Source: Candidatus Falkowella caecavicola
GTDB lineage: Bacteria; Bacillota; Clostridia; Oscillospirales; Ruminococcaceae
Direction: 5' to 3'
Assembly (NCBI GenBank): GCA_904420125.1
Contig: CAJFUK010000053.1
Coordinates: 1 to 64,000, forward strand
Length of the DNA: 64,000 bases
In this document: in pieces, positions 1,990 through 34,280 of the stretch
Numbering within the stretch: the stretch's first letter is position 1
Layout: every line of letters starts with the position of its first letter
The notes under the pieces: model-generated
Told to the model about the DNA's origin: nothing
The model's database searches: none
What the model saw: only the letters and a program-made list of their open reading frames with translations
Position numbers and translations under genes: made by a program

Positions 1990-3777
1990 CTATTTCTTAA
2001 TGATTGCGCCGAACTTACATTTTTCCATGCAGGCGCCGCACTTTAAGCATTTTGATTGATCAATGGTGTGCGGATTCTTAACCGTGCCGGAGATGGCTTC
2101 GGCCGGACAGACTCTTGAACAAAGGGTACATCCCTTACATTTGTCTTCCTGAATCTCATAATGGATCAGATGCTTACAAACGCCGGCCGGACAGGTCTTG
2201 TCCTTGACATGCGCGACATATTCATCGCGGAAGAACCGGAGTGTGGACAACACCGGGTTGGGCGCTGTCTGACCAAGGCCGCAGAGCGCGGAGTCCTTGA
2301 TATAATAGCAGAGCTGTTCGATGGTATCCAGATCTTCCATGGTACCGTTTCCGCGGGTAATCTTATCAAGCAGTTCATACAGGCGCTTGATCCCGATCCG
2401 GCAGGGCGTACATTTGCCGCAGGATTCATCGACGGTAAATTCAAGGAAGAACTTCGCAATATCCACCATACAGGTGTCTTCGTCCATAACAATCAGTCCG
2501 CCGGAACCCATCATTGCGCCGATCTGAATCAGGCTGTCATAGTCGATTTTTACGTCATAGCACTGTGCCGGAACGCATCCGCCGGAAGGTCCGCCCATCT
2601 GTGCGGCTTTAAACTTCTTGCCGTTTGGAATGCCGCCGCCGATCTCCTCGACAATCGTGCGGAGCGTCGTTCCCATTGGAACCTCCACCAGACCGGTGTG
2701 TTTAATTTTTCCGCCAAGCGCAAAAACTTTGGTACCCTTAGACTTTTCTGTACCAATGGAAGCAAACCATTCCGCTCCGTTTAAGATAATCTGCGGGATA
2801 TTGGCATAGGTCTCAACGTTATTGAGAATGGTCGGTTTTTCAAACAATCCCTTGACTGCCGGATACGGAGGACGGGGACGGGGTTCACCGCGGTGTCCCT
2901 CGATCGAAGTCATCAGAGCGGTTTCCTCGCCGCAGACAAATGCGCCTGCGCCCAAACGAATATCCAGATCAAAATCAAACCCGGTGCCGAAAATATTTTT
3001 ACCCAGCAATCCGTATTCTCTTGCCTGCTGAATCGCAATTTCCAGACGATGTACGGCAATCGGATATTCCGCGCGGACATATATGTAACCCTGGCTGGCG
3101 CCGATCGCATAGCCTGCAATCGCCATGGCTTCAATGACTGAATGCGGGTCGCCTTCGAGTACAGAACGGTCCATGAATGCGCCCGGGTCGCCTTCATCGG
3201 CATTGCAGCAGACATATTTCTGGTCCGCCTGGTTGGCTGCCGCAAGGCTCCATTTGACGCCGGTCGGGAAGCCGCCGCCGCCCCGTCCGCGCAGGCCGGA
3301 TTCTTTCACCACATCAACAACCTGCTGCGGTGTGTATTCAGTCAGACATTTTGCCAAAGCCTGATATCCGTCAAAAGCGATATATTCGTCGATATTCTCC
3401 GGGTTAATCACGCCGCAGTTACGCAGGGCAACACGCTGTTGTTTGGCATAAAACTGGGTTTCATTCAGGGACTTGACGGTATCCTTTTCGACCGTCTCAT
3501 CATAGAGCAGCCGGGTGACAACACGTCCCTTAAGCAGGTGCTCTTCTACGATTTCCGGAACATCTTCCACTTTTACCATACTGTAGAAGGATCCTTCCGG
3601 ATAAACAATCATAATCGGGCCAAGCGCGCAGAGGCCGAAACAGCCTGTCCGCACAACGTTGACTTCATTTTCCAAACCGTGTTCACGGATTTGTTCTTTT
3701 AACGCTTCAATAATTTTAGTACTGTTTGAGGATGTACATCCGGTACCGCCGCAAACCAGAACCTGAGAACGAAACAT
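1990..3777 (-). CDS. hydB: NuoF-like NAD(P)H-binding flavoprotein subunit of a bifurcating hydrogenase (HydB/HndC-like). It carries the FMN/NADH motif GRGGGGFPTGVKW, an N-terminal thioredoxin-like 2Fe-2S domain and C-terminal 4Fe-4S ferredoxin motifs.
   Basis: Conserved NuoF (51 kDa) motifs in the translation. There is a 17-bp gap to hydA. Confidence 0.9.
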   Translation of the reverse strand: MFRSQVLVCGGTGCTSSNSTKIIEALKEQIREHGLENEVNVVRTGCFGLCALGPIMIVYPEGSFYSMVKVEDVPEIVEEHLLKGRVVTRLLYDETVEKDTVKSLNETQFYAKQQRVALRNCGVINPENIDEYIAFDGYQALAKCLTEYTPQQVVDVVKESGLRGRGGGGFPTGVKWSLAAANQADQKYVCCNADEGDPGAFMDRSVLEGDPHSVIEAMAIAGYAIGASQGYIYVRAEYPIAVHRLEIAIQQAREYGLLGKNIFGTGFDFDLDIRLGAGAFVCGEETALMTSIEGHRGEPRPRPPYPAVKGLFEKPTILNNVETYANIPQIILNGAEWFASIGTEKSKGTKVFALGGKIKHTGLVEVPMGTTLRTIVEEIGGGIPNGKKFKAAQMGGPSGGCVPAQCYDVKIDYDSLIQIGAMMGSGGLIVMDEDTCMVDIAKFFLEFTVDESCGKCTPCRIGIKRLYELLDKITRGNGTMEDLDTIEQLCYYIKDSALCGLGQTAPNPVLSTLRFFRDEYVAHVKDKTCPAGVCKHLIHYEIQEDKCKGCTLCSRVCPAEAISGTVKNPHTIDQSKCLKCGACMEKCKFGAIIKK

Positions 3778-3822
3778 GAATGGTTTCCCCCTTTGATTTT
3801 TCTGTTAACGGTGTTTGACGGC

Positions 3823-4194
3823 TTATACAGCAGACGCACCGATGGTATATTCTGTAACAACTTCCCCGTTCATCAAGTGGCTGTGTACAACACGGAGCGC
3901 CTTTTCCGGAGTCATCTTTACATAAGTAACTTTTTCTTTGCCCGGTTCGAAAATTTCTACAACCGGTTCATATTGACAGATACCGATACATCCTGTCTGG
4001 GTAATGGTGACGCCGGACAGGTTTTCTTTGGAAACCTCTTCCACCAAAGCGTTGAGGACTGGGCGCGCACCGGCCGCAATGCCGCAGGTTGCCATACCGA
4101 CAACCACGCGGATGCCGTCCTCTGTTTCCGCACGCATTTCAATTTCTTTGCGGGCCTTATCCCGAATCGCCTGCAATTCAGCTAACGTTTTCAT
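3823..4194 (-). CDS. Thioredoxin-like [2Fe-2S] ferredoxin (HndB-like small subunit). Start placed at the internal ATG (MKTLAELQ...) preceded by a GAAGGAGGAG RBS. It overlaps the upstream stop by ATGA.
   Basis: Cys pattern C..C...GCIGIC. The RBS precedes the internal Met. The longer ORF-track version would overlap the upstream gene by about 90 bp. Confidence 0.7.
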   Translation of the reverse strand: MKTLAELQAIRDKARKEIEMRAETEDGIRVVVGMATCGIAAGARPVLNALVEEVSKENLSGVTITQTGCIGICQYEPVVEIFEPGKEKVTYVKMTPEKALRVVHSHLMNGEVVTEYTIGASAV

Positions 4195-6344: not shown

Positions 6345-6502
6345 CTTTATTGTATAAATAAAAACTCGAAATTTACAGATACTTATAACTATAAAAATAG
6401 CTATAAGTATTGATTTTTGCCGAATATTATGGTAAAATTATAGTAATCATGTAAATGGTATAAAAATATGTTTTAGGAAAAAATCCTAAAAGGGGAAGTT
6501 TT

Positions 6503-6751
6503 ATGGACTTGTTAGAATCCATTTCGTCCATCCTGCATTGTCAGTATATGTCAGATCTACATTACATTAAAATTACTCACGGGCAAGCTGATCAACTCCG
6601 TCAGCTGGAAGATAACCATTTCACATTATCTGATTGTCAGGATGCAGTTTGTTATATTTGCGGAGATGACGTACCCTGCACCAGCTTTCAGGAAGCCAAA
6701 CAAGTAATTATCCAACAGTTATTACGTGAAGAGCCGGAAACCCGTCAGTAA
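6503..6751 (+). CDS. Hypothetical small protein (82 aa), divergent from the XRE regulator and followed by a strong terminator.
   Basis: ORF with a plausible RBS (AAAGGGGAAG) and a terminator at 6762-6800. No recognisable domain. Confidence 0.4.
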   Translation: MDLLESISSILHCQYMSDLHYIKITHGQADQLRQLEDNHFTLSDCQDAVCYICGDDVPCTSFQEAKQVIIQQLLREEPETRQ

Positions 6752-18490: not shown

Positions 18491-19345
18491 TTACGGTTCT
18501 CCATAGATTATGCGGTAATTCCGCTGCAATACGCCGGCGCCGCGGAATCCAAATGCGCGCGTTTTGACCAGTGCAGGAATATCCTCATACCGCAGAATCG
18601 GAATACAGTCTTCAGAAAAAGCCCGGATCGATGTTTTCTGCAGCATATGATTATGCGGACAGACTTCCTGACAAATATCACACCCCCAGAGCAGCCCGCC
18701 CCGACGCACCAAAGCTTCTTCTTCCTGGGACAACTCCCCCTTTTTCTGGGTCACAGCGGATAAACATACCGCATCGGTCCGCCCGTTTGCCGACAGACAG
18801 CCGGACGGACATGCCTGTATGCATTTTCCGCATCCGATGCAGCCGCCTTGCGATGGCGTGTTGCAGGTAAACGGAAAATCTGTTGCAATTTCTCCGATGA
18901 ACTGATAGGTTCCAAACGCCTTGGTGATCAACAATCCGTTTTTTCCGCGAACACCCAATCCAGCCTGGACTGCCGCCGTCACCTCAGGGAACGGAGAGCT
19001 GTCAGTGAACCAGGCAAACTGAGCCTCCGGATAGCGTTCCTGCAAAAATCTGCAAGCTTTTTCCAGCATGTCACGGACGACTAAATGATAGTCTGCCACG
19101 ATGGCATACCGTGAGATATTATGCGGCATTTCTCCAACATAATAAGGGAACAGACAAACGATCAGCCGCACGGCATCTTTGGGGATCCGCTGCCGTGCGC
19201 GGCAGGGAAGAAAGGAAGTGCTGGACGGCAGCGAACAAACACCAAAAGAGGGAATTCCGGCAAAATCCATGGCCTGACGCAGATAATCCACATCTTTTTC
19301 CGAACACAGGCGCCCATCCAAAACAGTTTCCGTTTGGGCCGTCAC
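18491..19345 (-). CDS. queG: QueG-like protein (epoxyqueuosine reductase family) with 4Fe-4S di-cluster motifs CIGCGKCIQACP and CDICQEVCP. The start is uncertain. The full-length ORF (to 19531) overlaps the upstream gene by 190 bp. A GTG start at 19345 with a GGGGAGG RBS, sharing GTGA with the upstream stop, is an alternative.
   Basis: Ferredoxin-type Cys motifs. RBS analysis of the overlap region. Confidence 0.45.
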   Translation of the reverse strand: MTAQTETVLDGRLCSEKDVDYLRQAMDFAGIPSFGVCSLPSSTSFLPCRARQRIPKDAVRLIVCLFPYYVGEMPHNISRYAIVADYHLVVRDMLEKACRFLQERYPEAQFAWFTDSSPFPEVTAAVQAGLGVRGKNGLLITKAFGTYQFIGEIATDFPFTCNTPSQGGCIGCGKCIQACPSGCLSANGRTDAVCLSAVTQKKGELSQEEEALVRRGGLLWGCDICQEVCPHNHMLQKTSIRAFSEDCIPILRYEDIPALVKTRAFGFRGAGVLQRNYRIIYGEP

Positions 19346-20106
19346 ATAAACACCTCCCCGATCAGCCAGAAAATTCCCAGCAGCACTGGCTGATGGATCA
19401 GATAAATCCACAAGGTATGCCGCCCGCAGGCCGCTAAAAATCTGCAATGCGTACGGTAAAAAAATGTCGGCAGACATTTCCGGCGCAGATAAATCCCAAT
19501 ATAGGTTCCCGCCATAAACAAAAGTCCCCACGGGATCAGTGGAAAATAATCAGATGAAAAAAAGCTTTCCCCATGCAGCCCCAGCCAGAACAGCCAATCT
19601 GTCTCATACCAGGACGCCGGCAGAGAAATGAGCGGAACTCCCAACACACCGATATATCCATGCGGCAGACCGTACCCGGCAATAAACAGCAAGCCAAAGA
19701 CCCCCACTCCCACCCCGGCCGGGATCCTGTCCATCCATTTCTGAAGCAGACCAAAAAGAAGCATACAGATTCCCAACAGATGCAGGATTCCAAAAATGAT
19801 CCGTTCTGCAGGAAGTACGAGCCAAGTCACTGCGGTTAGAAGCAGTCCCAAACACAAGCACCAAAATCCACGACGGATATTGCTGCGGGAAAAACGGCTG
19901 ACCATCCCGGAAATCAGAATAAATACCCCGGCAAAAATATCCCGTACAGCATTTAACCAGGGGCTATAGAAAACAGGAATATTGATATGGAACAGACTCA
20001 CCAGATCATATGCTGCATGATAAACCACCATGCACAGGATAGCAAACCCCCGCACCTCATCCAGGAACCCGACTCGCTCTACTGTTTTCCCCCGACTTTC
20101 CGCCAT
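19342..20106 (-). CDS. Polytopic membrane protein, DUF1624 / heparan-alpha-glucosaminide N-acetyltransferase-like family.
   Basis: Hydrophobicity pattern and N-terminal RVGFLDEVRGFAILCMVVYH motif. Confidence 0.5.
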   Translation of the reverse strand: MAESRGKTVERVGFLDEVRGFAILCMVVYHAAYDLVSLFHINIPVFYSPWLNAVRDIFAGVFILISGMVSRFSRSNIRRGFWCLCLGLLLTAVTWLVLPAERIIFGILHLLGICMLLFGLLQKWMDRIPAGVGVGVFGLLFIAGYGLPHGYIGVLGVPLISLPASWYETDWLFWLGLHGESFFSSDYFPLIPWGLLFMAGTYIGIYLRRKCLPTFFYRTHCRFLAACGRHTLWIYLIHQPVLLGIFWLIGEVFM

Positions 20107-23607: not shown

Positions 23608-24360
23608 CTATCCCAACTCCGACAGGAACAAAGCGTCGAGTTTTGCCCAATCACGGGGTGCTTCCGCAGGGAGTACAGCGATGCGCTGCTTGATGTCGGC
23701 AATGCTTGTATCCAGATACCGATTGAGAGAATCGATCCGGTCAATTTGCTGTACCTCCGGCGCATGGATTTTCATTTCCAGCAGATCTTCCACAATCACC
23801 CGCAGCCTGCCATCCAGCTGGCTGTCCATTAATTCCGTAAACAGCATGGGCGGCGGCGTGCCCTTCTCCAGAATCCAACGGCAGGCCAGAACGGGCCGTA
23901 GTACGTAAAAGTATTTCTTTGCCTTGACCCGATCGCCGTGCAGATATTCCCGGTTATTGTTTTCCGCCATGCTGATGTAATGCCATAAGCTGTTTTTGGA
24001 AGAAAAATACTCCTGCATCAAAGACTTAAACCGGCTGGCAAACGGGCTGGTCTGATAGATGATCGGCGAAGAAAACCATTCAAAAACAGTCGGGTTTGAT
24101 TTGTGCAGCAGCCGCAGGGTTTTGTTAAGATCCCAGCCGTTGATATCAAGCAGGTCATGGATGGGATATTCGAGGACATCCCTGGATTTTTCCAGCTTGA
24201 GATAGTATTCCCGCGGACGAACATAGATAAAACGCACATCGTAGTCGCTGTCAGGAGAAGCGAATCCCCATGCGCGGCTGCCGGATTCTACAGCAAGAAG
24301 GATGCGGCAGTTTTCCTTTCTTTCAATTTCACACAGCTTTTTTTGAATTTCTGCTTTCAT
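23608..24360 (-). CDS. Pol-beta-superfamily nucleotidyltransferase (RlaP/COG3541-like 'predicted nucleotidyltransferase'), encoded immediately downstream of rtcB.
   Basis: NTase motif GSRAWGFASPDSDYDV (GS...DxD). Operon position with rtcB. Confidence 0.6.
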   Translation of the reverse strand: MKAEIQKKLCEIERKENCRILLAVESGSRAWGFASPDSDYDVRFIYVRPREYYLKLEKSRDVLEYPIHDLLDINGWDLNKTLRLLHKSNPTVFEWFSSPIIYQTSPFASRFKSLMQEYFSSKNSLWHYISMAENNNREYLHGDRVKAKKYFYVLRPVLACRWILEKGTPPPMLFTELMDSQLDGRLRVIVEDLLEMKIHAPEVQQIDRIDSLNRYLDTSIADIKQRIAVLPAEAPRDWAKLDALFLSELG

Positions 24361-24423: not shown

Positions 24424-25626
24424 TTAGTCTGCCGCCTTGTAATTGTAAACGGGTCGAATATGTTTGACAATTTCGGCGGTCGGTCCGATCTGACGGACAA
24501 TTTCATCCATCCGTTTATAAGCCATAGGCGACTCGTCCAGGGTATCGGGCAGTACACAGGTTGTATAAATACCCTCCATCTCCGCTTTGAACGCATCCAT
24601 CGTCAGGGATTGGAACGCCATCCTGCGGCTCATTAGCCGGCCTGCGCCATGCGGCGCGGAATAATTCCAATCTTCATTGCCCTTTCCCAGACAAATCAGG
24701 CTGCCATCGCGCATGTTGATGGGAATCAGCAGCTTTTCTCCTTTCCCGGCCGAAACGCTTCCTTTGCGCAGGATCATCGTCTCGGTATCTATATAGTTAT
24801 GAATGGTCGTAAATTCTTCTCTGCGTCCAAGCCCCAGCTTTGTCAGGATCACATCGGTCATGGCCTTCCGATTAAGCACGGCAAAATGCTGGATGATCTT
24901 CATGTCGTGAATATAGTCTTCAAACAGTTGTCCCTCCACATAGGCCAAATCCTTTGGAATCTCAATCCGGTGTTCCTTTTTCAGCTTTTGGATCGTGGGC
25001 TGGATCTCCTGAAAACGGCCCTGCTCTTTAAGCGTCTGAATCACCTTCTGGATCTGATGGCTGGCACCGCCCCAAAGCGCACGCCTTCCCTCATCCTGAT
25101 AAAAATTTGCCACTTCCGTGCCGAGATGACGGCTGCCGGAGTGAATAATCAGATAAAGCATGCCGTCGTCGTCCCGATCCACTTCAATAAAATGGTTGCC
25201 GCCGCCCAACGTGCCGATGCTGTGCCTGGCCCGGTCCAGATTGATCTGATCCGCACAGCGCAGCGCAGGCAGATCGATCTCCTGGTTCAGCGGATGTATC
25301 TCTGTGCGTACATTCCGTCCGGAAGGGACGTTTTCGCGGATTACCCGGTCCAATGCTTCAAAGTCAATCGTTTTCTCTTCCAGCAGGACTGTCTCCATGC
25401 CGCAGCCAATGTCCACTCCTACCATGCCGGGCACGATTTTGTCTTTAATGGTCATTGTAGTACCAATGGTGCATCCCTTGCCGGCATGTACGTCCGGCAT
25501 AATACGGATTCTGGAACCGGCAAATGCCTCCTGGTCACATACATCCTGAATCTGCTGCGCAGCAGCATCTTCCAGTGTCTCGCAGAAGCACTTGGCGGTG
25601 TTGTATAAACCTTCAATCTGGATCAT
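24424..25626 (-). CDS. rtcB: RNA-splicing ligase RtcB (3'-phosphate/2',3'-cyclic phosphate RNA ligase).
   Basis: RtcB signature motifs read in the translation: PDVHAGKGCTIG, GGGNHFIE, SGSRHLG, HGAGR. Confidence 0.9.
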   Translation of the reverse strand: MIQIEGLYNTAKCFCETLEDAAAQQIQDVCDQEAFAGSRIRIMPDVHAGKGCTIGTTMTIKDKIVPGMVGVDIGCGMETVLLEEKTIDFEALDRVIRENVPSGRNVRTEIHPLNQEIDLPALRCADQINLDRARHSIGTLGGGNHFIEVDRDDDGMLYLIIHSGSRHLGTEVANFYQDEGRRALWGGASHQIQKVIQTLKEQGRFQEIQPTIQKLKKEHRIEIPKDLAYVEGQLFEDYIHDMKIIQHFAVLNRKAMTDVILTKLGLGRREEFTTIHNYIDTETMILRKGSVSAGKGEKLLIPINMRDGSLICLGKGNEDWNYSAPHGAGRLMSRRMAFQSLTMDAFKAEMEGIYTTCVLPDTLDESPMAYKRMDEIVRQIGPTAEIVKHIRPVYNYKAAD

Positions 25627-25683: not shown

Positions 25684-26787
25684 TCAGGATGCCCGGCCTT
25701 TTAAAAGGCTACTGAGCTGTGTCAGTATGTCGCCTGTACCGTTTAAACTGATGTTCCCGACATTTTCACAGATCCTTTCGATGTATTCCATCTCTTTCAG
25801 GCGCAAAAGCGTCTGGTTTTCATCCATCAGTTTTGCCGTATTCAGCAGACTCCGGGTAGAGGCCACCTCTTCGCGGCGGGTAATCACGTTGGCCTGCGCT
25901 CTTTTTTCAGCTACAAGGACCGTATTCATGATATCACGGATCTCACCTGGCAGGATAATATCTTTAACGCCTCCATCGGCAATCTCCAGATAAAACGCAG
26001 CTGCTTTCTCTCTGCACCGTGCCAGTACATATGCGGAGATCTGCTCTTTATTTTCCAGAATTTCATCCAGCGTCTGCTTGCCGACATACTCCCGCATGGC
26101 AAGTTGCACGGCAACATGCAGCTGCTCTGCGTAATCGTCGATTTCTGTCAGCACCTTCACATAATCGGTAATCCGGTAGGTGCATACAAAGTTTATGCGC
26201 AGGCTGACTTTGTCTCTGATCAGGATCTCCTGACCGGTGATGTTCATCTGCGTCAGTCGGATATCCACAAAACTGACGTCAATCCGGATGTTGTTTTTCC
26301 AGAAATAATAGGTTCCGGCATCCAGCACCCGTTCCAGCTTCTGATTAAAATAAAGCCTGGCTTTCTGATATTCCGCCACCTGGACCTTGGTATAGAAACT
26401 GGCGGGCAGCATCTCGAAAATGTAATCAGGAACCTCCGGAGAAACCAGCGGGCTGGAGATATCGACCAGTTGAAAACGGTGTTGCTGTAATCCGTTCCAG
26501 AAGGCATATTTGCCCTTGCTCAGTGCGCTGCAGAACTTACCGTCGACAAAATGCAGCGCCAGCTGCTGGTCTGCCACTTCCACAACGGTGGTCTGCCGTG
26601 CAATTTCTGTTTTTTTGAGCAGGATATCCAGCGACGCTCTACTGGAATACAACGGTTCCTCTACGGCAAGGACCTCAATCTCGCGCCCGCCAAAACAATA
26701 GTATTTCCCAGTGCCGAGCAGCTTGACAAAACGGCCGTTTTGAAACAGCAGTCCCTTCTGATTTTCGTTGATTGTAATGGTTTTCAT
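25684..26787 (-). CDS. SPFH/band-7 (stomatin/slipin-like) domain protein with an N-terminal extension of about 150 aa. First gene of the SPFH-rtcB-NTase operon.
   Basis: C-terminal SPFH-like region. GGAGG RBS. 57-bp gap to rtcB. Confidence 0.65.
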   Translation of the reverse strand: MKTITINENQKGLLFQNGRFVKLLGTGKYYCFGGREIEVLAVEEPLYSSRASLDILLKKTEIARQTTVVEVADQQLALHFVDGKFCSALSKGKYAFWNGLQQHRFQLVDISSPLVSPEVPDYIFEMLPASFYTKVQVAEYQKARLYFNQKLERVLDAGTYYFWKNNIRIDVSFVDIRLTQMNITGQEILIRDKVSLRINFVCTYRITDYVKVLTEIDDYAEQLHVAVQLAMREYVGKQTLDEILENKEQISAYVLARCREKAAAFYLEIADGGVKDIILPGEIRDIMNTVLVAEKRAQANVITRREEVASTRSLLNTAKLMDENQTLLRLKEMEYIERICENVGNISLNGTGDILTQLSSLLKGRAS

Positions 26788-27085
26788 ATGTATAATCCTC
26801 CTTCAAGGTAAATTGTCGGTAGCACTTTCCCAAATGAACGGCGCACGGCCGATACGTTTAGTGCAGCAGTTCGGGCGGCGGAAAGTCCATACTTCTGGCC
26901 GGCCGTATGCATACACGGTATCCTGCATCGGGCAGGGTGCGGCGATCATTGCTTTACCGACGCTTCAGGACCGGCATTCCGCCGTACCCGTCGCACAAAG
27001 GGTCAAGCGAGCGGGAAAATGCAGATGATGAGCAGTTCAGAATATGAACCGCGGTTTAGCCGTTTCCGGCAATACCAAATCCACT

Positions 27086-27200
27086 TGGCCACATGTAGCA
27101 TGTGGGCAGGATTCGAACCTGCGATTATTTGGGGAGTCGAACCCCGTCGCGTACCTGCGATTGCCCTGGGCTGCATTGTGCAGCTTCATGCAGTGTCCTT
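27086..27200 (-). ncRNA. Candidate tRNA-like non-coding RNA element. Two consecutive stem-loops carry the tRNA TΨC-arm consensus (ACGGGGTTCGACTCCCC and GCAGGTTCGAATCCTGC on the minus strand). No complete cloverleaf could be built by hand, and no anticodon arm or acceptor/CCA end was found.
   Basis: GGTTCGAnTCC motifs within 5-bp stems in a roughly 540-bp non-coding region (26790-27330) directly upstream of the SPFH-rtcB operon. Only short, overlapping ORFs without RBS sit here. Confidence 0.3.
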
Positions 27201-27311
27201 TGGCATACGCTCTGGAAACTCCTCGCGCACCGCTGTGAAAAATGTCAGTCACAAGCATTTTGGACCCTGCAAATAGATCATAGCAAATCTTTCCTCTATA
27301 TTCACGGAAAA

Positions 27312-27358
27312 AAAGTTGCGAACTCTTTTTCAGAGTTCGCAACTTGACTGTTTTTTTA
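27312..27358. terminator. Bidirectional rho-independent terminator (AGTTGCGAACTC-ttttTC-AGAGTTCGCAACT flanked by T-runs). It overlaps the last codons of the WYL gene.
   Basis: Perfect 12-bp stem. TTTTTTT follows on both strands. Confidence 0.75.
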
Positions 27359-28241
27359 AACGTTCCCGTAACAATTCAATAAAATGATCCGGGGATATCA
27401 CCTGAATCATGGGGCCAAATGAAAGGACGCGAATCAACAGTTCGGTTTCGTCATCCTTCTCATAGCGCAGCGTAACCCGGTATTCATACTCGCTCAGCCG
27501 GACAGTTTCTTTTTCAAAATGGGAAAAATGAAGCAGCGCGCGTTCCAGCGTATTTCGTTCATCCTGTAAAATAAACGTCAGTGTTCTACACCTCGGCTGC
27601 GGCTCATGGAATCCGCCCATATCTGTCTGTTCCAGTAAATCGCAATGCTGAATACGGGCCATGTTGATGATATACCGTTTCCCTTTGCCCACGGCCAGTA
27701 TACGGAATTTATCGTCCTTTTCCGAATATTCCAGCCGGTAAGGCATGCAGACGACGCAGCAGGGGGCTGTCCTGCCCTGATAACGCAGACGTATGCTGCG
27801 CCGTTCCTTTACAGCCTGCAACACAAACCGGAATACTTCCCTGTAGACTGCATCCCCATAGGGATCTCCGTCCAGATACTGGTCAAAGTATACGATATCA
27901 TCCAGGTTAAAAAGCGGCTCTGTATCCTCAAGCCCGTTCATATCAGGCGCAAACAGTGCGATTCTGGCATCCTGCAACAGTGTTTTCAACCAGCGCTTCT
28001 GGAGAGAAGTCAGCGGCATGGACGGTGGATGTTGTATAGGCGTCGTAAGGTCGTTTTTCAGAAGCGGCCATTTTTTCCGGAGCGCAGCAGGGATCGAAAG
28101 ACTGCTTTCGGCAAAAGCTTTTTCCCGAATGATTTGATCGAGCTTATCACCGGTCAGCGTATGTTCCGCCGCCTCCTTCAGGATAGCCGCCACAGTGTTA
28201 AAATAACTGCTGTATATCTCGCTAAACAGCGTCGTCCTCAC
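27330..28241 (-). CDS. WYL-domain transcriptional regulator (HTH-WYL-C-terminal extension architecture), downstream member of an overlapping pair.
   Basis: WYL-like core P.RLEY......FRILA.......R.....ARI. It overlaps the upstream WYL gene by 20 bp. Confidence 0.6.
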   Translation of the reverse strand: MRTTLFSEIYSSYFNTVAAILKEAAEHTLTGDKLDQIIREKAFAESSLSIPAALRKKWPLLKNDLTTPIQHPPSMPLTSLQKRWLKTLLQDARIALFAPDMNGLEDTEPLFNLDDIVYFDQYLDGDPYGDAVYREVFRFVLQAVKERRSIRLRYQGRTAPCCVVCMPYRLEYSEKDDKFRILAVGKGKRYIINMARIQHCDLLEQTDMGGFHEPQPRCRTLTFILQDERNTLERALLHFSHFEKETVRLSEYEYRVTLRYEKDDETELLIRVLSFGPMIQVISPDHFIELLRERLKKQSSCEL

Positions 28242-29463
28242 CTCCGTACATCTGCCGCAAACGCTCCAGATCCGCGTAAAATCTGTCTACAACCATCTGA
28301 TTACTGCACCGAAGCTCTGTAATCCGTCCGATAAAAGTCCGGATCCAGGGCAGCAGTTCCGCAGCGTCGTACACATCCGCCGCAAACTGCCAGGTATGCG
28401 CATCGAGCTGTGTAACCGTTCCATTTCTTTTCTCCCGCTGCAGGCGCTGTGGGATGTGCGCTTCCCCTTCCCCCACACAAACAGTCATCTCTATATGTTC
28501 CACCCCGTGCACCGTACTGGTGGATACGCCCCAAAGGTACTTTCTGAAACGGGTATAACACGCCATATAATCATCGTGCTCGCCATCCACCGCGCCGGGC
28601 GTTACCTGGCAGATTGCGTCCAGCCGGTAAAAGGTGATAGATTTTCTGCCATAATGCCAACCAAGCAAATAACGCCGCCCGCCCTGTACGCTTGCATAAA
28701 TTTTCAATGGATATACCACCCGCCGCAGCTCCTTATGGCTGTGCTGGCTTCGGAGTACAAGCGTTACTGCACGATGCTCCCGCATAGCTGTCAAGAGGTC
28801 AAGCAGCACCTGACTATCCAGTGCGTGAAGGATATAATGGTGTTTAAATCCGAAATACGATGGAGGAACATCAGCCTTATCCAGCAGGAAAGACCCGATC
28901 ACACCTGCCGGATTTTCTTCCGAAAAGAAAGCGACTGCGTCCATCCATGAGTCAAGGTTCACAGTGTCCGCGGACAAATGATAACGAACTTCCCGCCCAT
29001 TTCTCTCCGCGGTTAAAAGGCCAAGATTTTCATATTCTTTCAGTTTTTTTCGTACTGTTGATTCATCCAGGCTGAATGCGTCGTCAAAATGAGAGAGATA
29101 GTTATTTTCAATCCGTTCCACAATTTCGCGGACTGTCAGGGAACATGGATCCGCCACAATATCCAAAATAAAAAAGTGGAGCGCGATATCCTTGTCCGTA
29201 AAGCTCTTAGCCTTGAAAGACTGATAGAGCGGATTGTACCGGATTGCCCGGCTGTCGACTGAAAGAAAAAGCCTTTTTCCGTTGGCGTCCTGCCAAAACG
29301 ACATATAATCTCCCAGCCAGCTTTCAATTCTGCGGCGTTCATTATCATAGCTGCGGGCGCTTTTGGCATCATACTCCTCGCGGCTTTTAAAACCATATAC
29401 ATAGAACTGCCGCATATAATCCCGAATGCGCTCATGGTCTTTGATCAGTTCGCTGAATGCCAC
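28222..29463 (-). CDS. HTH-WYL-domain transcriptional regulator (PafB/PafC-like architecture), upstream member of the pair.
   Basis: N-terminal winged-HTH-like segment and WYL core (RRYLLGWHYGRKSITFYRLDAI). Confidence 0.7.
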   Translation of the reverse strand: MAFSELIKDHERIRDYMRQFYVYGFKSREEYDAKSARSYDNERRRIESWLGDYMSFWQDANGKRLFLSVDSRAIRYNPLYQSFKAKSFTDKDIALHFFILDIVADPCSLTVREIVERIENNYLSHFDDAFSLDESTVRKKLKEYENLGLLTAERNGREVRYHLSADTVNLDSWMDAVAFFSEENPAGVIGSFLLDKADVPPSYFGFKHHYILHALDSQVLLDLLTAMREHRAVTLVLRSQHSHKELRRVVYPLKIYASVQGGRRYLLGWHYGRKSITFYRLDAICQVTPGAVDGEHDDYMACYTRFRKYLWGVSTSTVHGVEHIEMTVCVGEGEAHIPQRLQREKRNGTVTQLDAHTWQFAADVYDAAELLPWIRTFIGRITELRCSNQMVVDRFYADLERLRQMYGGEDDAV

Positions 29464-29696: not shown

Positions 29697-30194
29697 CTAA
29701 CAGAACCAGGATTTATGCTTGATAATAAAATGATAATTGAGTTCTTCCAAATCATCCGGTTGCCTGTAAAATTCCCGGTCGCATGCAGAAAGAATTTGAT
29801 CGGCCTGGTCAGTCATCACATGATCAAGAAATTCCTCACGCTGTATTTTGTCAACAGGTATCTTTTCATTCAAAGCACAAATCGCTTTCCGGCAAATAGC
29901 GGCTGTTTTTTCTGCGCCGATTGCTTTAAAGGAGGCAACCAGGTCGGCGGAAATATCGCCGTAAGCATTATAAAAGTATTGGATAAATCCTCCATTGTTC
30001 ACTTCCGCTTCCAGTTGCAGCGTCAGATAAACCGTTCGTTCCGGAGTGGAAAGAATAGGAAGGTTAGATCCGTTATCACTTTTTCTGCATAACCAGCTGT
30101 TGACTGCTATTAAAAAATCTTCTTTATTTTGTATGTTCCAAACATCCCGGATATCAATTCCCAAGAATTTTTTTATTTCGTTGTTATGCGGCAT
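29697..30194 (-). CDS. DUF4375 / DMP19-like (DNA-mimic family) protein. Tentative.
   Basis: NNGGFIQYFYNAYGD motif remembered from DMP19-family proteins. No search possible. Confidence 0.35.
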   Translation of the reverse strand: MPHNNEIKKFLGIDIRDVWNIQNKEDFLIAVNSWLCRKSDNGSNLPILSTPERTVYLTLQLEAEVNNGGFIQYFYNAYGDISADLVASFKAIGAEKTAAICRKAICALNEKIPVDKIQREEFLDHVMTDQADQILSACDREFYRQPDDLEELNYHFIIKHKSWFC

Positions 30195-30775: not shown

Positions 30776-30851
30776 TGGTGGAGATAAGCGGGATCGAACC
30801 GCTGGCCTCTTGAATGCCATTCAAGCGCTCTCCCAGCTGAGCTATACCCCC
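30776..30851 (-). tRNA. tRNA-Ala (anticodon GGC) with encoded CCA and a G3:U70 identity pair. A terminator hairpin lies immediately downstream (30730-30775).
   Basis: Reverse complement gives GGGGGTATAGCTCAGCTGGGAGAGCGCTTGAATGGCATTCAAGAGGCCAGCGGTTCGATCCCGCTTATCTCCACCA. D, anticodon and T arms were folded manually. Confidence 0.85.
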
Positions 30852-32962: not shown

Positions 32963-34111
32963 CTATAATTTCTCACCGGAAGATACAGGATTTTGCTCCT
33001 TGTCAAAGGTCAGCAGATAAATGTCTGAACGGGTATGACGGGCAATATCCCGCAGCCGGGTTCTTTCTTCCGGCGCAAAAAAAGTATAAGCGACTCCTTC
33101 CCGTTTGGCGCGGCCGGTTCTTCCAATCCTATGCAGGTAATATTCATTTTCTTCCGGCAGTTCATAGTTGAATACGGCCTCGACGTCACATACATCGATC
33201 CCTCGCGCAGCTACATTGGTCGAAACAAGAATATGAATCTGCCCCGCTTTATAAGCGGCCATGATTTTATTTCTGGCGCGCTGATCCATATCGCCGTGAA
33301 GGCATTCTGCTGCAAATCCATATTTGATTAACTGTCCGCAAAGGCTGGATGTCATATATTTTGTATTGCAGAACACCATCGCTCTGCGGTATCCCATCTT
33401 GCTGATAATATGCATGAGCGCGATCAATTTTCGTCTGCCGTCGCATTCCAAGGCATATTGCTGAATTTGAGGGCGGCTTTCTTCAACAGGGCGGACAATA
33501 ATCTCCTCCGCATTCCGCTGATACAGCCATCCAATATCCATCACCTCGCGCGAAATGGTTGCCGAAAACATGGAGAGCTTTTTTTCTTTTGGCAGTTGAT
33601 CCAGGATATACCGTACATCTTTAAAAAAACCCATATTGAGCATCTCATCCGCCTCATCCAAAACAACGGACAATACCTTGTTAATCCGGATATTTTTTCG
33701 TTTTGCATGATCCAGCAGCCGGCCTGGGGTTGCAACAATGATCTGCGGCTTTTTTTGCAATTCTGCAATCTCTGCTTTGATAGAATGGCCGCCGTATACC
33801 ACCGCAATCCGGATTTGGGGTTTAAAGGCTGCCAGCTGCCGGAGATCATCTGCAATCTGAGTGGCCAGTTCCCGTGTCGGCGCCAAAATCAACGCCTGCG
33901 GATAGTCTGCAGACAGGTCAAGCTGTTCAATCAGCGGAATTCCGAAAGCGCAGGTTTTTCCTGTTCCGGTTGGCGCCTTGGCAATCAGTTCTTTGCCTTC
34001 TAAAAGAATGGGGATAGCCTTTTCCTGTATTTCTGTCATCTCCGAAAACCCCATTTGTTCTACAGCCTGGAGAATCTCTGGCGAAACAGGTAATTCTTGA
34101 TATTTCATCAT
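32963..34111 (-). CDS. DEAD-box ATP-dependent RNA helicase.
   Basis: Q-motif and motifs I (AKAPTGTGKT), II (VLDEADEM), III (SAT) and VI (HRIGRTGRA). Confidence 0.85.
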   Translation of the reverse strand: MMKYQELPVSPEILQAVEQMGFSEMTEIQEKAIPILLEGKELIAKAPTGTGKTCAFGIPLIEQLDLSADYPQALILAPTRELATQIADDLRQLAAFKPQIRIAVVYGGHSIKAEIAELQKKPQIIVATPGRLLDHAKRKNIRINKVLSVVLDEADEMLNMGFFKDVRYILDQLPKEKKLSMFSATISREVMDIGWLYQRNAEEIIVRPVEESRPQIQQYALECDGRRKLIALMHIISKMGYRRAMVFCNTKYMTSSLCGQLIKYGFAAECLHGDMDQRARNKIMAAYKAGQIHILVSTNVAARGIDVCDVEAVFNYELPEENEYYLHRIGRTGRAKREGVAYTFFAPEERTRLRDIARHTRSDIYLLTFDKEQNPVSSGEKL

Positions 34112-34280
34112 ATCCGATAAGTCCTTTTCATTATAATACTTTTTATTATACACAGATTAGACAGCTTACGCAACCTCACCTACCCAGCCGTGCGGACCTA
34201 TGGCCCTATCCACTTGCCCAAAAACAGTCGGCAGGTTGATTCTTCTCCCCAGCTGACCAATTTTGCATGGTGTAACCCTT

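Follow-up and report, generated by a model that had tools for sequence, protein, structure and literature searches.

The 64,000-nucleotide (nt) stretch of contig CAJFUK010000053.1 of Candidatus Falkowella caecavicola (the window, meaning the whole stretch of DNA that was analysed) carries on its minus strand a run of genes in the order WYL1, WYL2, SPFH, RtcB and RlaP, with a gap of 540 nt between WYL2 and SPFH that encodes an RNA (Table 1). An earlier reading of this DNA, made from the sequence alone, had noticed in this gap two hairpins that mimic the T-arm of a tRNA (here T1 and T2) and had proposed a Y RNA of the YrlA type. We found that T1 and T2 belong to a leader of ~480 nt (~27271-26823, minus strand) composed of three covariation-supported domains, namely a 5' junction formed by H1, P1 and P2, a tRNA-like region and a 3' domain of ~180 nt. 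The analysis described here concerns the structure of this RNA, its conservation in Clostridia and its relationship to the tRNA-like RNAs that accompany RtcB in other bacteria.

Both T-loop-like hairpins were present on the minus strand as quoted in the sequence-only reading, with stems of 4-5 base pairs (bp) and loops of 7 nt. The motif GGTTCGANTCC occurred at only two sites in the 64-kb window, both within the element and 24 nt apart, relative to a chance expectation of 0.16, and two or more matches were obtained in 0 of 100 shuffles. To compare this arrangement across genomes, 80 loci from distinct species were collected via an alignment of the SPFH protein; these spanned Oscillospiraceae, Acutalibacteraceae, Lachnospiraceae, Ruminococcus, Christensenellaceae and others, including the cultured species Oscillibacter valericigenes and Robinsoniella peoriensis. 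The order WYL1-WYL2-RNA-SPFH-RtcB was conserved in this set. A search with nhmmer using the intergenic region of the window matched 71 of the 80 loci, always just 5' of SPFH and in many cases along all 540 nt, and a covariance model of T2 and the two hairpins that follow it (AS and a D-like arm) found exactly one full-length, sense-strand copy 5' of SPFH in 64 of the 80; four of the loci without a full module lack upstream sequence. Loci outside the seed alignment scored 35-58 bits. The window itself gave a single match of 62.4 bits (next best, 6.7 bits), a score that is expected because its sequence is part of the seed.

Among homologues, the T2 loop was near-invariant and the T2 stem was 100% paired, with covariation at three of its five pairs (CG/UA at one, GC/AU at another). 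The earlier statement that the T-arms could not be complemented by an acceptor, D or anticodon arm proved incorrect, as T2 is followed by a capped, acceptor-like hairpin (AS) and a D-like arm that are both supported by covariation. All seven pairs of AS showed compensatory changes, with 32 distinct 5' strands among 59 homologous loci (window included), and at least six of the seven pairs were retained in 55 of these. Three of the four pairs of the D-like arm covaried, and the Rfam model of YrlA places this arm on the D-arm of YrlA. When the T2, AS and D-like helices were assessed together in 51 sequences aligned with MAFFT only, 89.6% of cells were paired relative to 29-46% for slid partners, 13 of 16 pairs were compensatory and covariation was 0.512 (slid, ≤0.14). 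The slot 3' of the D-like arm is kept as either a GNRA or a UUCG hairpin across loci. The core is a circularly permuted tRNA mimic in which a T-arm, a capped acceptor-like hairpin and a D-like arm succeed one another.

The 5' junction was supported by two kinds of evidence. For H1, an alignment-free test was used in which the 5' end of each locus was paired with its own partner and with the partners of diverged loci; cognate duplexes were more stable than non-cognate ones (mean -13.3 cf. -9.8 kcal/mol, n=41, Wilcoxon p=6e-8). Within H1, the P1 helix was 91% paired with compensatory changes at five of six pairs, while P2, the most conserved element of the RNA, was 100% paired with AU/GC and AU/CG swaps. 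In a MAFFT-only alignment, P1 and P2 together had 96.1% of cells paired relative to 19-53% with a slid partner, and nine of 16 pairs were compensatory.

The 3' domain was predicted by RNAalifold from 26 sequences extending from the D-arm to the SPFH ATG, which yielded 47 pairs, 42 of them compensatory. Overall, 87.9% of cells were paired relative to 35-42% for slid controls (covariation 0.582 cf. ~0.11), which bears out the earlier suggestion that the remaining ~300 nt of the gap might be structured. Two conserved motifs of this domain are unpaired, GGAUACCG (26923-26916) and GGCCG. The domain had no match in Rfam and might either be regulatory or constitute a second RNA. A minimum free energy (MFE) fold from the predicted start reproduced H1, P1, P2, both T-arms, AS and the GNRA hairpin. 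A long terminal stem of the kind found in Y RNAs (GUUUCC…GGAAAC), which appeared in the MFE fold of an arbitrary 221-nt slice, was rejected, as its 5' strand belongs to the self-covarying P2 and the start-based fold gave H1, P1 and P2 instead. A terminator scan of the window and of one other Clostridial locus (L017) found no sense-strand intrinsic terminator between the RNA and the SPFH ribosome-binding site, and the RNA is therefore most likely the 5' part of the operon transcript.

Table 1. Features of the WYL-RNA-SPFH-RtcB-RlaP locus, listed 5' to 3' on the minus strand (window positions).
Feature	Position	Strand	Sequence or remark	Basis
WYL1, winged helix-turn-helix + WYL-domain regulator gene	28222-29463	minus	first of tandem pair	Pfam
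WYL2, second regulator-like gene	27330-28241	minus	weak WYL + WCX	Pfam
14-bp perfect hairpin/palindrome	27313-27345	minus	over the WYL2 stop codon, then T7; also in L017	terminator scan
Intergenic gap WYL2-SPFH	26788-27329	minus	540 nt	
Near-invariant 20-mer	27303-27322	minus	TTCGCA(A/G)CTTTTTTTCCGTG; abutting/overlapping -35 position	alignment
Extended -10 element	27277-27285	minus	TGCTATGAT; family consensus TGGTAAAAT	conserved in alignment
H1, 5' strand	27262-27271	minus	UGCAGGGUCC; at/near RNA 5' end; pairs with 27189-27198	
P1 hairpin	27232-27256	minus	inside H1	covariation
P2 hairpin	27202-27231	minus	GGUGCGC-GA-GGAGUUUCC-AGA-GCGUAUGCC; inside H1	covariation, pattern search
H1, 3' strand	27189-27198	minus	GGACACUGCA	duplex test, MFE fold
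Variable-region hairpin a	27170-27184	minus	GCUGCA-CAA-UGCAGC	MFE fold
Hairpin b	27131-27161 including T1	minus	AUCGC-AGGUAC-GCGAC; stacked directly on T1	MFE fold
T1, T-arm mimic	27131-27145	minus	GGGG-UUCGACU-CCCC	
T2, T-arm mimic	27106-27122	minus	GCAGG-UUCGAAU-CCUGC	
AS, capped acceptor-like 7-bp hairpin	27089-27105	minus	CCACAUG-CUA-CAUGUGG; abutting T2	
D-like arm	27075-27088	minus	CCAA-GUGGAU-UUGG; loop with conserved GG	
GNRA-capped hairpin	27059-27070	minus	GCCG-GAAA-CGGC; 3' of D-like arm	
3' domain	26823-27001	minus	five nested helices, ~180 nt	RNAalifold
3' domain helix 1	27001-26994/26830-26823	minus		
3' domain helix 2	26949-26937/26846-26834	minus		
3' domain helix 3	26933-26924/26856-26848	minus		
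3' domain helix 4	26916-26913/26864-26861	minus		
3' domain helix 5	26903-26891/26886-26874	minus		
SPFH ribosome-binding site	26797-26804	minus	GAAGGAGG	read from sequence
SPFH/Band-7 (slipin) protein	25684-26787	minus		
RtcB RNA ligase	24424-25626	minus		Pfam RtcB E=2e-60
RlaP, RNA-ligase-associated Pol-beta nucleotidyltransferase	23608-24360	minus		Pfam RlaP E=2e-92

The region 5' of T2 differed among homologues. A slot 5-8 nt upstream of T2 held a T-arm-like hairpin only (T1) in 15 of the 59 loci, T1 together with an anticodon-arm mimic in six, an anticodon-arm mimic only in 16 and neither in 22, and because its content varies in this way T1 is a real but optional module. The window copy belongs to the T1-only group and is without an anticodon-arm mimic. 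In the 21 loci with T1, its stem showed compensatory variants (GGGG/CCCC, GAGG/CCUC and AGGG/CCCU), as did helix b in the alignment (AUCGC/GCGAU, UCAC/GUGA and GCG/CGC). The region of hairpin a differs in length among loci. The anticodon-arm mimics of Clostridial loci have 7-nt loops such as CUGUCAA, CUGUAAA, CUGUUAA, UUGUGAA and CUUUUAA; the middle position of the anticodon triplet was U in 20 of 22, and the triplets were mostly GUC, GUA, GUU, GUG or UUU.

Upstream of the RNA, a near-invariant 20-mer and an extended -10 element were conserved. The 20-mer was almost unchanged in a 45-sequence alignment across Clostridial families, in which the flanking intergenic DNA varied freely, and it comprises the 3' half of the 14-bp hairpin, the T-run and CCGTG. 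This hairpin is probably the terminator of WYL2 and possibly doubles as an operator. A terminator alone needs no such sequence conservation, and the 20-mer is thus a candidate operator for the WYL regulators. PafBC, a tandem WYL activator, binds in place of a -35 element, and the operator idea draws on this analogy; sequence searches of the PDB returned no match for either WYL protein, so that the analogy with PafBC rests solely on domain content and tandem arrangement. A promoter scan of L017 independently of the alignment identified GTGAAA-17-TAAAAT with a TG extension. H1 starts 6 nt 3' of the extended -10 element, and the predicted transcription start would lie at ~27270. A sigma-54 promoter at the conserved TTGCA was also considered but rejected, because neither the spacing nor the -24 element is suitable and these five bases make up the 5' end of helix H1.

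WYL1 matched the Pfam WYL domain at residues 219-288 (E=1.6e-9) and has a PaaX/ArsR-like helix-turn-helix (HTH) at residues 121-168; most of the 80 loci retain it 5' of the RNA. WYL2 matched WCX (E=7.6e-5) and, weakly, WYL (E=0.025), with no HTH detected in the Pfam domain scan, and was always directly 3' of WYL1 and 5' of the RNA in the 80-locus comparison. The SPFH protein carries three beta repeats at its N terminus, and no membrane segment could be detected in it. In Pseudomonas aeruginosa, RlaP, the biochemistry of which has been described (PMC12776372), is encoded between rtcB and rtcA (PMC12776372), and an SPFH protein lies within the RtcR-controlled rtc locus (PMC13086221). The Clostridial cassette is preceded by a pair of WYL regulators, whereas the regulator reported for the rtc locus of P. 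aeruginosa is RtcR, which is of the CARF type.

Several other features of these loci were recorded. In five loci (L027, L030, L036 at 3366-3983, L071 and L077), an inserted open reading frame (ORF) of ~205 amino acids (aa), for which Pfam and NCBIfam gave no match, separates the RNA from the SPFH gene. In L017, a sequence 3' of rtcB (6446-6670, minus strand) matched group II intron D1-D4 with 34.7 bits. In the window, a gene for a DMP19-like protein (29697-30194, minus) lies just 5' of WYL1, and a DEAD-box helicase gene was located at 32963-34153. A gene for a QueG-like epoxyqueuosine reductase (18491-19531, minus) was found ~4 kb past the end of the operon. Queuosine modifies tRNAs with GUN anticodons, and GUN-like loops are mimicked by many homologues of the RNA; the proximity of the QueG-like gene is probably a coincidence.

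Rfam and ARAGORN agreed with the earlier statement that the element is not a canonical tRNA. Both programs reported a single tRNA in the window, a genuine tRNA-Ala(GGC) at 30776-30851 (minus) that lies upstream of WYL1 and 3.6 kb from the element. At the gathering threshold, Rfam made no tRNA, tmRNA or Y RNA call at the element itself, in which the acceptor-like stem is closed by a loop rather than open. The tRNA model did accept one Clostridial locus (L075, 41.2 bits) as a cloverleaf that uses the 3' strand of P2 as acceptor, and ARAGORN made four weak calls of the same cloverleaf type among the 80 loci. This canonical acceptor paired at seven of seven positions in 31 of the 59 loci, and at four or fewer in ~21. 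It was rejected for the window, in which only one of seven pairs can form and the supposed D arm is the 3' strand of H1. We take the permuted fold to be the universal one because AS retains at least six of seven pairs in 55 of 59 loci compared to the failure of the canonical acceptor in ~21. An alternative fold or a switch is possible in a subset of loci that does not include the window. In L002, L003, L004, L012, L017 and others (the same 31 of 59), the strand after the T-arm pairs 7/7 with the invariant 3' strand of P2 or 6/7 with its own downstream partner, and its variation is wobble-compatible with both, an arrangement resembling the 1:2 / 2:3 / 3:4 pairings of an attenuator.

A more distant set of RNAs was found by scanning public collections with the signature of P2 as a DNA pattern. 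At least 120 metagenome matches were obtained, and at least 67 loci passed follow-up filters and fell into two groups, Clostridial and WYL-less. Among the matches listed, the first group consisted of further Clostridial WYL-RNA-SPFH-RtcB(-RlaP) loci. The second, comprising at least about 29 metagenomic loci, had neither WYL genes nor the 20-mer; in this clade P1 and P2 are followed by two T-arms at fixed offsets of +70 and +143, and then by genes for SPFH (23-36% identity) and RtcB (~31%). Thirteen matches on viral contigs, which were without a T-arm, operator or model match, were attributed to chance.

All 17 distant-clade loci tested were called by ARAGORN and Rfam as two tandem tRNA-like units (40-62 bits, cf. 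a threshold of 29), and none of the 17 gave a YrlA call. Unit 1 (examined in L102, L119, L127, L145 and L153) has a full acceptor of 6-7 bp, an encoded (A/G)CCA and an 'anticodon' loop of 4-6 nt. In unit 2 the anticodon arm is normal, with highly varied triplets, and the acceptor has just 4 bp (UGGA/UCCA); the two units look specialised for different tRNA halves. A further hairpin 3' of unit 2 carries a C-U-N-U-N-A-N loop (CUGUCAC in seven loci, CUUUCAC in four, followed by CUGUUAC and CUGUAAA). Such hairpins, the loops of which resemble U33/U35/A37 of an anticodon arm, recur in both clades, in the slot 5' of T2 in the Clostridial loci (L002-L075) and after unit 2 in the distant ones (L102-L210), and the triplets at the anticodon position over both clades are GUC, GUA, GUU, GUG, UUU and UUC. 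The two T-arms of the window are best read as a remodelled counterpart of the tandem tRNA-like pair, and the point at which two units meet is a possible origin of the T2-AS-D arrangement.

Of the known RNA families, YrlA was the one proposed for this element in the sequence-only reading. A permissive Rfam 15 scan of 26700-27400 aligned YrlA (RF02553, model positions 24-84) over T2, AS and the D-like arm with 16.7 bits (E=1.5 for a 701-nt search), compared to a gathering score of 69; the other matches listed were at chance level and included no riboswitch or leader family. Neither the window nor 37 related loci contained a YrlA match at the gathering threshold. The Ro-binding motif GNCGAAN0-1G was absent from the window RNA, and among homologues it occurred in 15 of 59 loci (cf. 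16% of shuffles) with no conservation of position. The 5' end of the RNA pairs locally, in H1, rather than with its 3' end, and there is no conserved long terminal stem. A domain search of window ORFs of ≥300 aa found no TROVE/Ro60 domain of the kind that an Rsr gene would encode.

The element nevertheless resembles YrlA in the order of its tRNA-like domains (T-arm, loop-closed acceptor-like stem, D-arm with GG), an order described for YrlA by Chen 2014 and Wang 2018 (bioRxiv 10.1101/312249), and in being encoded together with RtcB and probably co-transcribed with the operon. It differs in having no Ro-binding stem or motif and no Rsr nearby, in scoring far below threshold, in its much larger size with extra domains and in its partner, which is SPFH and not Ro60. 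In all, the element departs from YrlA in three of four testable defining features. What stands of the original proposal is a conserved tRNA-mimic RNA that is coupled to rtcB and has YrlA as its sole Rfam alignment; its assignment to the Y RNAs does not. The resemblance to vault RNA and the major vault protein particle is an analogy of domain order only, with no evidence of a cage and no TEP1/TROVE partner here.

A closer counterpart is b7a-tRNA, a computational and experimentally unvalidated prediction by Burroughs & Aravind (NAR 2016) that, as described in a secondary source (bioRxiv 10.1101/312249), adjoins Band-7 and RtcB and 'strongly resembles an authentic tRNA'. The distant clade matches this description, to the extent that the secondary source gives it. 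The window RNA likewise adjoins SPFH and RtcB (and RlaP) and contains T-arm and tRNA-like modules. The P2 signature GGUGCRY..GG..CC..RYGUAUGCC is common to it and the tRNA-scoring clade, and Clostridial loci share with that clade the C-U-N-U-N-A-N hairpin. Unlike b7a-tRNA as it is described there, the window copy escapes recognition as a tRNA by ARAGORN and Rfam; its arms are permuted and its acceptor is capped. A second T-arm takes the place of the anticodon arm of its relatives, and the copy has in addition a 3' domain of ~180 nt and the H1 junction, with WYL-type regulators instead of RtcR. Rfam 15 contains no model for the element, and we found no description of the Clostridial RNA in the searchable literature, a comparison that lies outside Burroughs & Aravind 2016, in which some of its anatomy may already have been noted.

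Several other explanations were weighed. The suggestion that the hairpins are decayed tRNA 3' halves or integration scars without function, raised as an alternative in the sequence-only reading, would suit a family plausibly descended from tandem tRNA genes and the presence of tRNA-Ala 3.6 kb away, but it is refuted by a position and orientation that are fixed in 64 of 80 loci from several Clostridial families and by compensatory substitutions in every helix, and there is no integrase or repeat context; we give it practically no weight. A genuine YrlA-type Y RNA served by a Ro60/Rsr encoded elsewhere in the genome is largely refuted as well and appears very improbable. YrlA was the only Rfam family to align over T2, AS and the D-like arm, other phyla show a linkage of Y RNAs to rtcB (bioRxiv 10.1101/312249; PMC7790460) and YrlA occasionally adjoins Band-7 (bioRxiv 10.1101/312249), but the score, the missing Ro motif and terminal stem, the lack of TROVE in the ORFs searched and the result of 0 of 37 related loci at threshold all oppose it, and dimeric or tandem tRNAs can mimic the YrlA arrangement and score as false positives (Chen et al.). 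A purely cis-acting leader, similar to a riboswitch or attenuator, in which the tRNA-like shape serves solely as a sensor of RNA damage signalled by cleaved tRNA, by 2',3'-cyclic-phosphate ends or by a small ligand, or binds SPFH or RtcB for feedback, would control read-through or translation of SPFH-rtcB-rlaP. We regard this, the main rival, as unlikely, although no terminator separates the RNA from SPFH, the 3' domain with its unpaired GGAUACCG and GGCCG motifs ends just before the ribosome-binding site, the 3' strand of P2 and the two strands of AS can pair alternatively (7/7 and 6/7) in 31 of 59 loci and the alternative cloverleaf of L075 is accepted by Rfam. The window and ~20 other loci cannot form the alternative pairing, the ribosome-binding site is not sequestered in the consensus structure and no known riboswitch family matched in the scan described above. 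Furthermore, the 3' domain is absent from the distant clade, which has in this place complete tRNA-scoring units that resemble products rather than switches.

The RNA might also act as a sentinel or decoy for anticodon nucleases, that is, a mimic that is cut by the ribotoxins countered by the operon or that titrates them, the cleavage products of which could feed the WYL sensors and which RtcB could reseal. Nucleases of the colicin E5, PrrC and gamma-toxin (zymocin) types target tRNAs with NUN anticodons, and the C-U-N-U-N-A-N loops found in both clades, with their middle U in 20 of 22 Clostridial mimics, resemble this anticodon class. YrlA has been proposed as a possible competitive inhibitor of anticodon nuclease, and RtcR senses tRNA fragments (Hughes et al. 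2020, PMC7790460). Arguing against this role, no more than 22 of the 59 Clostridial loci have the hairpin, the place of which is taken by a T-arm in the window, and 22 loci have neither; the loop could be a plain conserved protein-binding motif, the unit 2 'anticodons' of the distant clade are highly varied and no nuclease gene is linked. Attractive as the loop pattern makes it, we consider the sentinel role improbable. The same low probability attaches to a more elaborate version in which the RNA would be a sentinel substrate within an SPFH particle, its tRNA-shaped module would be attacked by the nucleases that also damage the tRNAs of the cell, its fragments would switch on the WYL pair and resealing by RtcB and RlaP would end the response, making the RNA a self-reporting sensor of damage.

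Taken together, the two T-arms belong, with high confidence, to the Clostridial version of the tRNA-like RNA that accompanies Band-7/SPFH and RtcB, the b7a-tRNA family as the secondary source describes it. What this RNA would do, as a tRNA-mimic cofactor or decoy of the repair module, is proposed tentatively, at somewhat less than even odds; the explanation as a whole is in our judgement probable. According to this explanation, the extended -10 promoter at ~27270, controlled by the WYL pair, would give rise to an SPFH-rtcB-rlaP transcript that begins with this RNA; the leader would either stay in the mRNA or be processed out, in the manner of the Y RNAs in the rsr-yrlBA-rtcBA operon of Salmonella. 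The P2 hairpin is a putative binding site of SPFH or RtcB, and an obvious candidate for protein binding because it is common to very different RNAs that precede SPFH-RtcB across phyla. The tRNA-shaped module may serve as a tRNA surrogate in the repair particle, either by docking tRNA-recognising enzymes and substrates or by competing with tRNAs for anticodon nucleases, a role that would parallel the one proposed for Y RNA and Ro60 in proteobacterial operons.

A number of points weigh against this explanation. P2 and the T-arms are the only detectable sequence homology between the Clostridial RNA and the distant clade, in which the H1 junction and 3' domain are not detectable; H1/P1 and the 3' domain are specific to the Clostridial type. 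As the distant clade was found via the P2 pattern itself, its possession of P2 is subject to an ascertainment effect, and the equivalence with b7a-tRNA rests on the secondary description (bioRxiv 10.1101/312249). The D-like arm has just 4 bp and was not formed in the MFE fold. The 3' domain ends ~20 nt before the ribosome-binding site, a position that also suits a cis-regulatory element, and the RNA may exist solely as part of the mRNA. Since the window copy is without an anticodon-arm mimic, a role as anticodon-nuclease decoy is not general.

The element is therefore interesting rather than unprecedented, since it is a relative, in remodelled form, of a tRNA-like RNA that was predicted in 2016. 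The analysis provides a covariation-supported model of ~480 nt, with three domains and exact boundaries, for an RNA that is widespread among Clostridia of the gut and has no entry in Rfam. Its tRNA mimic is modular, in that individual loci may carry a T-arm, an anticodon-arm mimic, both or neither, which bears on the role of tRNA-like RNAs in bacterial RtcB repair operons.

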